Shown: positions 31,118-34,326, numbered from the stretch's first letter. The stretch: DNA of 64,000 nucleotides from Verrucomicrobiales bacterium (GCA_002684915.1 NYWG01000162.1:11324-75323), one strand, 5' to 3'. Numbers and translations are program-made. Notes: a model not told the origin generated them from the sequence alone.

Positions 31118-33121
31118 ATGCCGCTATTTTCGCAGCTACCGCTTCCCCTGCGGGCAAGATTCTCGCCAGAGTTTGACTTCGATGTCAGCCTTCGCACGCA
31201 AAACTTAATTCAGTGCGCTAACCGACTTATTAGCGTTGACCTCGCGGGAAAAACAAACGAAGACCCTGTACCCGAAATTTTAAACAATCTACTAAGAAAC
31301 GTCGACAGAAATGTTCGCAGAACCACGAGGTCTAGAAACTCTGCATCTTTTACGTTTTCGTACGGGGATTTGATTTGTTTAGTTCCCGCAATTAACTTTC
31401 CACAAAGTGGAGTTGTTTACAAAGTCAAATTGTTGGATTTTACATCTTTCATGGACCAGCCACCGATTCTGAATCAAGTCATTCAACCCAACTCAGCATC
31501 CATCCCTTACAGATTTTTGAATTCCAGCATGCGCCTAAACGTTAGAAATGACACTGGTGAAAACGTACAACTAAGCCACGCGTCTTCTGTAATCTTGTCG
31601 CGCTGGGATAGGATGCCAATCAGCATTTTAAATCCAACACTTCCAGAGTTTGTTCCAAGCCGACAAACACAGCAACGACAGCAAATCATGGTTGGTATGA
31701 CAGCACTCGACCAGTCTTTGATAAGAAGAGAGATAACGGAAGGAATTCGGGTGCAAAGAAGAGTCGTCGACCCAAACGTCACAAACTGCATGATTTGCTT
31801 CGAAAGTGGTTTAAAAAAAGATTTCATTGCATCTAACTGCAATAGACACTACATGTGCCCAGAATGCTTGAAGGAATATATGAGTCAACCGTCGTACAAT
31901 CATCCGATTAATAATCTTGGAAAAAAGTTTATATGCCCATTCGACGGATGCCGCGGCATATTTGATATGAGCAAAGTATTTGACAAACTTGACGAGGAAA
32001 CCCAAAAAAAATTAAACGATCACTTGAATTCTCTGCCAGAAACGTGCGGTTTTCCTTACGCTTGTGGCAATTGCAATCATATCAATTTTTTGGACCTTAC
32101 CGATCCGGGCGATAAAAATGAACCTATCACTTGCCAATCTTGCAGACACGACATTTGCAAGAACTGCTGCTGTACGGACCATTGCGAATGCCCTATACAA
32201 GGCTGGGTCAATTGCCCCCTTATTATTGACTACCCTGTTGAAAACGAACGCCAAATAAACGCAAGTCATCAAAAGGTTCCAAAATATGTTATTCAAAAAA
32301 AAGAGTTTACGACGAAAATGGCTATCAGTAGCTTGCACCATCTCTTATCATCACCGACTCCCTTCAACTGCTCATGTAGCCACTGTGGGTGTATGTTGGA
32401 AAGATCTGAGGCGTGTACTGAATTAAAGCATTGCAACATAAGTACGTGCTCGCTCTGCGGATTGAAAGCAAAACCAGGCGAAACGCAAATACACGCAAGT
32501 CATTGGAACGAATGTTTTCGCTATGAGGAAGATTTGTTTGAACATATCAAAGTCCCATATCAGTCGTTGTGTCACGCTAGATTGACCACCATTCTTTCTA
32601 GTCTCCGCCGAGCTCTTCACGTGACCAGATTGTTCAAATTTTTAACAAATGAGCAAAAAAATTTATGCGACGCTTTAATGAACGATTGGGTGCTGCTTCC
32701 AAGTTCTCACGAAATGTCGATTGAACTTGCTACTTATGAGAATTTCGAATACGGACTGATGCTTTTAAGATGGGGCTATCCTACCGTCACAACAGCTTCA
32801 AATAGCGTCGTATCTTTGAACATGATGAGTGAATCGTCGCACGAATTTCTCGTTGAACATACGAACAAACTAATACCATCCTTTCAATACGATTCGATGG
32901 ACGACACGGATAGTGATATTTCTAACGAAATGCCGCCTCTTGAACCTCAGCAGCTCTTTCCATCAATTTTGGACCCGAATATTACTGATCATCCGGGCGC
33001 AACCATAGTATTCCGCCCCATAGAACCACCGTTCACAACGCCGCCGCCCCGAGCCGCACAAGTTCAAACGCGCATGCACAGCTACACGAACGTCAGCCAG
33101 CCCCCGCCGGCGCAAGAATAA
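31118..33121 (+). CDS. RBR (RING1-IBR-RING2) type E3 ubiquitin ligase
   Basis: RING1 CMICFES..SNCNRHYMCPECLKEY..ICPFDGC; IBR-like CGNCNH..CQSCRHDICKNCCC; RING2-like CSHCGCMLERSEACTELKHCNISTCSLCG. Confidence 0.75.
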   Translation: MPLFSQLPLPLRARFSPEFDFDVSLRTQNLIQCANRLISVDLAGKTNEDPVPEILNNLLRNVDRNVRRTTRSRNSASFTFSYGDLICLVPAINFPQSGVVYKVKLLDFTSFMDQPPILNQVIQPNSASIPYRFLNSSMRLNVRNDTGENVQLSHASSVILSRWDRMPISILNPTLPEFVPSRQTQQRQQIMVGMTALDQSLIRREITEGIRVQRRVVDPNVTNCMICFESGLKKDFIASNCNRHYMCPECLKEYMSQPSYNHPINNLGKKFICPFDGCRGIFDMSKVFDKLDEETQKKLNDHLNSLPETCGFPYACGNCNHINFLDLTDPGDKNEPITCQSCRHDICKNCCCTDHCECPIQGWVNCPLIIDYPVENERQINASHQKVPKYVIQKKEFTTKMAISSLHHLLSSPTPFNCSCSHCGCMLERSEACTELKHCNISTCSLCGLKAKPGETQIHASHWNECFRYEEDLFEHIKVPYQSLCHARLTTILSSLRRALHVTRLFKFLTNEQKNLCDALMNDWVLLPSSHEMSIELATYENFEYGLMLLRWGYPTVTTASNSVVSLNMMSESSHEFLVEHTNKLIPSFQYDSMDDTDSDISNEMPPLEPQQLFPSILDPNITDHPGATIVFRPIEPPFTTPPPRAAQVQTRMHSYTNVSQPPPAQE

Positions 33122-33124
33122 TCC

Positions 33125-33784
33125 TTATAAGTACGTTAAAATATTTTTACAAATTTCGCTAGTTTGCAGTTCGCCGTTGACGATGTTTATGTCATGTCCG
33201 CGTTCCATGAGTTCGGCTTGCATCTCGTTATGAGCTATTTCTACCTTTTTTAGATATTGTAGATCTATATTCTTTTCTTCGCGCCTTTCTCTGTAATTAA
33301 TCCTACTGGCGCACACCAACGTGCTAACCTTGATGTAAAAATATGTCTCTACGAACTTAGGGTCGTATTTTCTTAAAGTGTCGTAGATAATTTCTAATAA
33401 ACTATCGTTATTTATGGTATACAATGAATCTTCCTCTGGGGAAAACGAATTCATGTTGGCAAAAGCCTTACAACCGAACTGTAGTCCACGCTCCACTACA
33501 ATCAGAATGTTGTCGTCTTCTTTGAGGTTTATTTTGTCGATTGCTCGCAAGCTATTGATTATATTCGTAGCTCTTGTCGTAAGGACCATGTTTTGAAATA
33601 TTTTAGAATCTATTTTTTTGGTGTACAACCATCCAAGGGCGCCACTTTCTGTCCATAATTTGATAGGCTCGGGGATCTGTATTATGTGAGCAAAGGTAGG
33701 TTTGCACAGTTGAGAAAGTGCCTGTAATATTGTAGATTTTCCGGAGCCGATATTTCCCTCTACGTATATGACATGCAGTTTCAT
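33125..33784 (-). CDS. deoxynucleoside kinase (dCK/dGK/TK2 family)
   Basis: P-loop VEGNIGSGKST, ERS-like VVERGLQ, and LID-like RINYRERREE. Trimmed to the ATG at 33784. Confidence 0.85.
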   Translation of the reverse strand: MKLHVIYVEGNIGSGKSTILQALSQLCKPTFAHIIQIPEPIKLWTESGALGWLYTKKIDSKIFQNMVLTTRATNIINSLRAIDKINLKEDDNILIVVERGLQFGCKAFANMNSFSPEEDSLYTINNDSLLEIIYDTLRKYDPKFVETYFYIKVSTLVCASRINYRERREEKNIDLQYLKKVEIAHNEMQAELMERGHDINIVNGELQTSEICKNILTYL

Positions 33785-33837
33785 TTTTTTTATTGTAATA
33801 TTTTTAAACGATTGACAAGAACGAAGTTTCTTAGATA

Positions 33838-34326
33838 TTACATCACAAGGCTGATGATTTTGCGGCATAAGGGGCAGTCGTTATTTTGGGTCTTGTACGT
33901 ATCGTAGCATTGTTGACAACACACTCTATGTCCGCATGGCACAAACGTCGTCTGTGGCGCGGCATCAAAGCAAATGACGCAAGTGTCCACTGTAAATATT
34001 TTTTCTGGTGCTACAACGTAGTCATTCAAAATTTGGATGTTTTTACGCTTGACGGTGTAGAATGGGGTGAGTCTATGTACCAGAGAAATATCAGAAGCGG
34101 GCACTCTATAAAATTTTCCCTCGGTCCGGATTGATTTGGGAAATCTGCAGTTGTAGGTGTTATCGTAGGCGTTTTGCGTTGATTCTCCGTCGTTTTCGTA
34201 GGCATGAAACCGAACTCGAAGCTTAGAACCCTGCGTAACGCATTTTAAAATCACATAAGCCATGATACGATAGGTTGGCTCTAAATAAGTTTTTTGGTGG
34301 AGGAACAATATTTTTTCTTTCTCCAT
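33838..34326 (-). CDS. C-terminal C3HC4 RING-finger E3 ligase
   Basis: CVICFDAAPQTTFVPCGHRVCCQQCYDTYKTQNNDCPLCRKII. Confidence 0.85.
   Translation of the reverse strand: MEKEKILFLHQKTYLEPTYRIMAYVILKCVTQGSKLRVRFHAYENDGESTQNAYDNTYNCRFPKSIRTEGKFYRVPASDISLVHRLTPFYTVKRKNIQILNDYVVAPEKIFTVDTCVICFDAAPQTTFVPCGHRVCCQQCYDTYKTQNNDCPLCRKIISLVM

Follow-up and report, generated by a model that had tools for sequence, protein, structure and literature searches.

A divergent RBR-type gene and three further genes of ubiquitin ligase type in a predicted segment of a marine giant virus genome

Four genes with domains of ubiquitin ligase (E3) type lie within the 64,000-nucleotide (nt) stretch of DNA analysed here (the window; NYWG01000162.1, of which positions 31118-34326 are shown). 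They encode an RBR-type protein, a RING protein and two U-box proteins (Table 1), and a six-frame search of the window with regular expressions found no RING or U-box beyond these four genes. A preliminary description of the sequence had proposed four E3 genes of three mechanistic classes; all four open reading frames (ORFs) exist where they had been placed, each with a domain of E3 type, and the RBR, RING and U-box classes are all represented.

The window contains about 70 densely packed ORFs on both strands, and Pfam matches among their products include a D5-like primase-helicase, an mRNA capping enzyme, a cap N7-methyltransferase and the RNA polymerase subunit Rpb5. The RBR ORF has an identical counterpart at NCBI, MAD25107.1, entered there as a hypothetical protein from a 'Verrucomicrobiales bacterium' metagenome-assembled genome (MAG), and marine metagenome contigs as long as 180 kb also carry the protein cluster of MAD25107.1. 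From the predicted gene content we conclude that the window represents part of the genome of an uncultured marine giant virus (Nucleocytoviricota), and because the contig has these giant-virus genes the assignment to a Verrucomicrobiales MAG looks like mis-binning. A megablast comparison of the window with a phage collection gave no match, as expected for a giant virus. Related contigs (L001-L007 and L010-L012) were used for comparison.

Table 1. Coordinates of the E3-type genes, the domains of the RBR protein and the adjoining genes, counted from the first nucleotide of the window (aa, amino acids).
Feature	Coordinates	Strand	Length, domains and putative zinc ligands	Evidence or remark
RBR-type E3 ligase gene (predicted)	31118..33121	+	667 aa	ORF, homolog family, profile, model, Foldseek
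RING1 of RBR protein	31787..31951	+	aa 224-278; C224, C227, C241, H244, C247, C250, C273, C278 (C3HC4)	
IBR of RBR protein	32063..32191	+	aa 316-358; C316, C319, C339, C342, C347, C350, C356, C358	C-x4-C-x2-C core
RING2 (Rcat) of RBR protein	32375..32515	+	aa 420-466; C420, C423, H438, C439, C444, C447, H462, C466, with putative catalytic C433	
RING protein	33838..34326	-	162 aa; C-terminal C3HC4 RING aa 116-154 (nt 33865-33981)	Pfam zf-C3HC4_3
U-box protein 1	17723..18475	+	250 aa; U-box ~aa 53-121 (nt 17879-18085)	Pfam PF04564
U-box protein 2	21472..22125	-	217 aa	PF04564, paralogy; strain-variable cassette
Free-standing HNH endonuclease	17203..17700	+	165 aa	Pfam HNH 33.8 bits; ends 22 nt upstream of U-box 1
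GIY-YIG nuclease	30750..31046	-	98 aa; catalytic domain only	Pfam GIY-YIG 60.9 bits
Deoxynucleoside kinase (dNK)	33125..33784	-	219 aa	Pfam dNK 68.1 bits; not an E3; between RBR and RING genes

The RBR gene had been proposed to code for RING1, IBR and a RING2 holding a putative catalytic Cys in the motif LERSEAC. The three domains are flanked by an N-terminal region of 215 aa, which is poorly conserved and predicted with low confidence, and by a helical region that follows RING2. RING1 has the spacing of an N-terminal C3HC4 cross-brace (C224-x2-C227-x13-C241-x2-H244-x2-C247-x2-C250-x22-C273-x4-C278), with Ile226 at the C-x-I-C position used for E2 contact, and it is the only part of the protein with a Pfam match, a weak one to RING (aa 224-279, 19.8 bits). 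In an alignment of 49 family members the RING1 ligands are invariant or nearly so, eight Cys columns are conserved in the IBR, and Cys or His is invariant or near-invariant at every expected ligand position. The profile made from this alignment matches ARIH2 across RING1 and IBR (E=2.3e-7 overall), RING1 aligning with the RING1 of ARIH2. The nine Cys/His positions of RING2 are invariant in 47 diverse RING2 segments, and the best matches of a profile built from these segments alone are the RING2 of HHARI (1wd2, E=1.6e-3), ARIH1 and the RING2 of parkin. In this alignment Cys433 (codon 32414-32416, within LERSEAC) falls on the active-site Cys column of HHARI and parkin RING2, a column that is Ser in chain 2m9y, and the proposed position of the catalytic Cys is thus borne out. 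Counting of ligands suggests that C433 is not a zinc ligand.

A homolog search returned seven close relatives of the RBR protein, with overall identities of 30% to 97%, in all of which ERSEACTELKHC is invariant. An exhaustive profile search found 132 clusters (at 50% identity, E<=1e-3), many of them spanning RING1 to RING2, and a later search with a deeper family profile (A2) added few members; a scan of IMG/VR with the family found nothing. The family is known only from metagenomes and most of its clusters have no Pfam annotation. Distant members are also located on giant-virus-like contigs, and every member whose contig was examined has a giant-virus-like context. A single-sequence search of the PDB with the RBR protein returned nothing but noise (matches to a YY1 zinc finger and to a serpin), and an eight-sequence profile (A1) gave weak RING matches only, so that the deeper alignment (A2) was required. 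A first AlphaFold2 run, at full length with eight sequences, had a mean predicted local distance difference test score (pLDDT) of 49.5 and was taken as a hint only; it was replaced by a model of the core (aa 215-521) from the deeper alignment, with a pLDDT of 85.9 and a predicted template modelling score (pTM) of 0.74. Foldseek comparison of the core model with the PDB yields RBRs in all of the top 41 matches, led by RNF216 (8eb0, E=8.9e-7), and the predicted fold has three domains arranged as in solved RBR structures. Family profile, RING2 profile, core model and structural matches together confirm the reading of the protein as RBR-type, with an IBR predicted from the eight Cys columns and the match to ARIH2, and the protein is a predicted ligase that is divergent from canonical RBRs.

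RBR ligases had also been described as unusual in viruses, which does not hold for giant viruses. A Foldseek search of BFVD matched 17 giant-virus proteins at E<=1e-3, to which the family of 132 clusters can be added; several of the 17 are named RBR-type E3 ubiquitin transferase, triad3, RNF216 or RNF14. Uncharacterized proteins of Pandoravirus macleodensis and Pyramimonas orientalis virus are also matched, and a Megavirus protein named ariadne-like appears further down (E=0.058). No open-access paper on RBR or IBR in giant viruses was found. What is specific here is a divergent viral RBR family that Pfam IBR (PF01485) detects in only three of 49 members, giant-virus RBRs as such being already annotated. 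With 132 clusters and an invariant active-site motif in this Pfam-invisible family, current annotations probably miss some of the thioester-forming E3s of giant viruses.

The RING protein, put forward as a C3HC4 RING ligase, is supported by Pfam (zf-C3HC4_3, 53.5 bits against a cutoff of 27), by 61 RING matches in the PDB, of which the RINGs of cIAP1, XIAP and MGRN1 are nearest (E down to 1.9e-7), and by eight ligands (C116, C119, C131, H133, C137, C140, C151 and C154) in canonical C3HC4 spacing. Its gene adjoins the dNK and RBR genes in L001 and in L004-L006.

U-box 1 matches PF04564 over nearly the full length of the profile (positions 4-70 of 73; 25.1 bits against a cutoff of 21.4), and its PDB matches are U-box proteins only, LubX and AtPUB among them. 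The start at 17723 agrees with ten of twelve homologs; a start at 17666, which would overlap the HNH gene and give an N-terminus like that of U-box 2, was rejected, as most homologs start as at 17723. Hydropathy analysis reveals a hydrophobic segment near the C-terminus (aa 217-231), and U-box 1 is alone in the family alignment in having a 14-residue insertion after the U-box. At the 3' end of the gene, a single 22-bp patch (18442-18463) holds 12 of the 19 differences from L012, a contig 99.85% identical over 12.7 kb. The patch exchanges the C-terminal peptide DMIDLDEA for ENENLFMS and is a replaced micro-segment, not an inversion.

U-box 2 is a paralog of U-box 1 (40% identity, E=4e-32) and reaches 22.2 bits with PF04564, over the same cutoff, yet along profile positions 3-33 of 73 only. 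Eleven residues are missing from the second half of its U-box, before the PN motif, and in a relative from L011 the second half diverges in the same way. In L004, which has 96-98% DNA identity to the window, a segment of 725 bp (window 21459-22183) is replaced by 26 bp in a clean indel. The segment comprises exactly U-box 2 and its AT-rich upstream region, and no direct or inverted repeats are evident by eye at the junctions. This fourth E3-like gene is therefore dispensable between near-identical strains, and the E3 repertoire is fluid at the strain level. The two U-box proteins claimed earlier are consequently one complete U-box protein and one that is truncated and missing in a near-identical strain, and the 'four E3 ligases' may really be three active ones. 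The related 80-kb contig L011 contains three U-box paralogs inside 12 kb (1033-2109, 10001-10876 and 10963-12021), two of which are convergent neighbours; expansion of the U-box family is therefore recurrent.

The absence of ubiquitin, E1 and E2 genes from the window, which had been noted before, is upheld for this part of the genome by a tblastn search with ubiquitin, SUMO, NEDD8 and two E2 sequences, which gave nothing below E=0.4, and by a Pfam survey of all 70 ORFs that are 70 aa or longer, in which no UBC, ThiF or ubiquitin domain was found. The further claim that the ligases would have to use host E2 enzymes agrees with the lack of such genes in the window, but 64 kb do not allow it to be concluded when contigs reach 180 kb; because the window is part of a far larger genome, we infer rather than conclude dependence on a host E2.

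Each of two nuclease genes abuts an E3 gene, HNH lying upstream of U-box 1 and GIY-YIG being divergent from the RBR gene across a 71-nt spacer. Both adjacencies, noted in the preliminary description, are real (joint P=0.011 by permutation, a post hoc statistic). The nuclease-assisted mobility suggested with them finds some support for HNH and U-box 1, in a tract of low synonymous divergence (dS) and a different position in L010, and is unsupported for GIY-YIG and RBR. The GIY-YIG gene is beside the RBR gene in L001, L004-L006 and L010. All relatives whose RBR homolog is at least 67% identical have it, and its dS (0.88 against L010, 0.49 against L001) matches that of the flanking genes. An insertion of GIY-YIG, considered because no gene is called in L001, was dropped when tblastn revealed an uncalled gene of 82.7% identity there. 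GIY-YIG lies about 6 kb from the RBR homolog in the distant relatives L002 and L007, and this loose linkage may be residual synteny. In these contigs the RBR homolog is within about 10 kb of GIY-YIG together with HNH (L002, 2343-10987) or with a RING gene (L007, 690-11099). Judged by these comparisons of sequence, GIY-YIG is a vertically inherited neighbour of the RBR gene.

The HNH gene and the 5' part of U-box 1 have a different relationship to L010. Window 17329-18082 is 95.5% identical to this contig, the rest of which is 80.5% identical, and the HNH protein is 94% identical. The dS against L010 is 0.11 for HNH and 0.03 for codons 1-120 of U-box 1, values 5-20 times lower than those of eight flanking genes (0.54-0.88). 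The two genes are directly upstream of a thioredoxin gene in L010 and 9 kb from thioredoxin in the window. Identity collapses at the end of the U-box domain (18082), beyond which the C-terminal tails show no relationship, and the U-box homologs in L003 and L011 have no adjacent HNH. The pattern is consistent with recent exchange of a module made up of HNH and the U-box 1 5' half, of the kind expected when homing is accompanied by co-conversion, and the fluidity of the E3 repertoire may be helped by a homing-type nuclease. In U-box 1 codons 1-120 (17723-18082, against L010 398-757) nonsynonymous divergence (dN, 0.048) exceeds dS (0.03) on very few substitutions, which hints at diversifying or relaxed selection in the 5' half of the gene.

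The four E3 genes fall inside 16.6 kb of the 64 kb, which is not significant (P=0.058), and many unrelated genes stand between them. One of these is the dNK gene, for which an internal ATG at 33784 is the likely start, giving a protein of the same length as its orthologs in L001 and L004 (219 aa). Read from the first ATG (33868), dNK would overlap the end of the RING gene by 31 nt; with the start at 33784 there is no overlap. The order RBR-dNK-RING is kept in L001, L004-L006 and L010, whose RBR homologs are 67-96% identical. We conclude that the clustering of the E3 genes reflects mostly inherited synteny and paralogy and not an operon-like unit.

Several other genes in the window may be mentioned. 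A 213-aa ORF (4116-4757, minus strand) matches the PetC transmembrane anchor (PF25471, 50.9 bits) and a Rieske 2Fe-2S domain (39.9 bits), and would be a virus-encoded protein resembling the Rieske subunit of cytochrome b6f, which suggests a photosynthetic host. Also on the minus strand are a 2158-aa ORF with a glycine-rich domain at its C-terminus (57335-63811), a DegP-like protease with trypsin and PDZ domains (44780-46789), a UbiA prenyltransferase (48904-49803) and a short-chain dehydrogenase/reductase resembling enoyl-acyl-carrier-protein reductase (10584-11564). At 26451-27166 (plus strand) the window has two ORFs of 82 and 138 aa where L004, 98% identical, has a single gene of 219 aa. 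The frame is broken at a run of A near 26685-26700; this suggests either a homopolymer frameshift due to an error of sequencing or assembly, or a recently formed pseudogene.

RING2 has nine invariant Cys/His positions, which exceeds by one the number required for two zinc sites, and the surplus position is the column of the catalytic Cys. This count bears on whether the 667-aa protein is merely RBR-like, a non-catalytic triple zinc finger serving as decoy, scaffold or nucleic-acid binder in which Cys433 is structural. A protein of that kind would agree with the failure of Pfam IBR on the protein itself and with a RING2 whose sequence match to known RBRs reaches only E~1e-3 (1.6e-3 for the best hit), which lacks the usual His two residues after the catalytic Cys (C-T-E-L) and in which the spacing to the next ligand is unlike that of canonical RBRs. 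These features all weigh against a catalytic RBR, as does the derivation of the RING2 zinc-ligand assignment from spacing and not from coordinates. The G-x3-C-x2-C spacing after the active site agrees with that of RNF216 RING2. The collinearity of RING1, IBR and RING2 with ARIH2 and RNF216 argues against a non-catalytic zinc finger, however, and LERSEACTELKHC is invariant while overall identity ranges from 30% to 97%, an invariance that therefore indicates an active site. We consider a non-catalytic protein to be quite unlikely, and retain the reading of the gene as encoding a divergent RBR-type ligase.

For HNH and U-box 1 the question is whether L010 records an exchange at all. It is a single metagenomic contig that was assembled from short reads (k127) and starts within the HNH gene; its breakpoint, at window 18082, falls where the conserved U-box domain ends, and the same Tara data set is rich in window-like strains, all of which would suit a chimera of a window-like strain and a more distant virus, joined inside conserved U-box coding sequence. 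A chimera at k=127 needs an exact overlap of 126 nt, however, and would thus require U-box regions far more alike than flanks with a dS of ~0.6 allow, and in L001, which was assembled independently, a U-box gene likewise lies upstream of thioredoxin and has a dS of 0.17 over 51 codons against 0.35-0.71 for its flanks. We give an assembly artefact a real chance, though clearly the lesser one. Dependence of the exchange on L010 counts against it, as does the occurrence of the identical HNH protein on 18 contigs with a single gene context in the places shown; no HNH-free allele of the same locus (an empty site) and no cleavage site was found. A more ambitious proposal is that the HNH homing endonuclease drives lateral exchange of the U-box 5' module between co-infecting marine giant-virus lineages, creating U-box genes that have the N-terminal, E2-binding half in common but exchanged tails for targeting at the C-terminus; we offer it tentatively and think it doubtful. 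More sweeping again would be a functional 'E3 island', in which selection keeps the four genes together and the nucleases belong to a mobile unit that moves E3 genes between viruses. The permutation result for nuclease adjacency, the occurrence of GIY-YIG, an RBR homolog and a RING gene inside ~10 kb in L007 and of an RBR homolog, HNH and GIY-YIG inside ~9 kb in L002, and the low dS of the HNH/U-box tract in L010 are in its favour. It has to contend with a clustering that is not significant and in which two of the four genes are paralogs, with the many genes in between, the dispensability of U-box 2, a GIY-YIG that lacks a DNA-binding domain and matches its flanks in dS, U-box homologs without an adjacent HNH in L003 and L011, and the post hoc nature of the adjacency statistic. 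Such an island seems very unlikely to us.

We therefore favour, as the probable explanation, a set in which the divergent RBR, the IAP-type RING protein, the complete U-box 1 and the truncated U-box 2 most likely redirect the host ubiquitin system, with clustering due mostly to inherited synteny and paralogy and with HNH and the 5' half of U-box 1 behaving as a recently exchanged module. Ligase activity of all four proteins is a prediction from domain architecture and conserved residues, which is a point against this explanation, and the steps beyond these are modelled on known families. RING1 of the RBR protein would bind E2~ubiquitin, the ubiquitin would be transferred to Cys433 in RING2 as a thioester, and from there it would pass to a substrate that the non-conserved regions at the two ends of the protein select. 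The RING protein would be a classical scaffold E3, and it and U-box 1 would activate E2~ubiquitin directly. Because of its hydrophobic, tail-anchor-like C-terminus U-box 1 may act at a membrane, and U-box 2, dispensable between strains, may have little or no activity. The host, or else viral genes beyond the window, would supply E2, E1 and ubiquitin. During mixed infections HNH would co-convert flanking DNA, so that HNH and the 5' half of U-box 1 would be exchanged as a module.

Giant viruses that infect marine algae are an important cause of death in plankton, and their takeover of host protein turnover is little understood. The locus provides a concrete candidate set for such a takeover and leaves knowledge of E3 mechanisms unchanged; two points are of modest interest, a viral RBR family invisible to Pfam and the possible nuclease-linked exchange of a U-box module. 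If the latter is true, it would represent nuclease-assisted shuffling of host-manipulation genes in Nucleocytoviricota.

The window RBR shares with RNF216 (TRIAD3), ARIH1/HHARI and ARIH2 a collinear RING1 (C3HC4)-IBR-RING2 architecture with the catalytic Cys on one column, and the closest of these depends on the method: RNF216 (8eb0) by Foldseek, ARIH2 by sequence profile, and the RING2 of HHARI by RING2 profile. It differs from them in an identity of only 13-17%, in escaping Pfam IBR, and in an IBR that ends in C-x-C and not in H-x4-C. Its RING2 has a His-Cys pair after the catalytic Cys in place of C-x(1-4)-C, and no His at +2. RNF216 has C-x-C at the place of this pair, and we take the window RING2 to be closest to RNF216/TRIAD3. 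The N- and C-terminal regions are unrelated to those of the RNF216 and Ariadne types, with no UBA, Ariadne or other known accessory domain. Annotated RBR proteins of Klosneuvirus, Hokovirus, Fadolivirus, Hyperionvirus, Yasminevirus and Megavirus courdo7 are virus-encoded RBR folds like that of the window model (Foldseek E from 6e-8 to 7e-4, the ariadne-like Megavirus protein being weaker), whereas the window RBR is 13-18% identical to them and belongs to a separate, metagenome-only family.

The RING protein resembles the IAP/XIAP/MGRN1-type RINGs in its eight ligands, in Ile118 and CPLCR at the E2-contact positions, and in the location of the RING at the extreme C-terminus, but it has no BIR or other known domain, and its N-terminal 110 aa are unannotated. 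U-box 1 shares CPI, QPV, G-x-TYE and PN-x2-LR-x2-I, and the lack of zinc ligands, with the U-boxes of plant PUB proteins and Legionella LubX. The window U-box family departs from these in virus-family flanking motifs (IKKT..SRR.YLK.LGI upstream and FFEENWN downstream) and in variable, sometimes hydrophobic C-terminal tails, and U-box 2 in the loss of its 11 residues between the loop-2 Pro and the PN motif. The free-standing HNH and GIY-YIG homing endonuclease genes of T4-like phages (the Mob and Seg families) spread with co-conversion of flanking markers. Unlike the Mob and Seg genes, the window GIY-YIG shows no sign of mobility, and the window HNH is without a found cleavage site or HNH-free allele and has a single context in the places shown; in being small, intergenic, absent beside U-box homologs of other lineages and located in a low-dS tract, HNH is similar to them.

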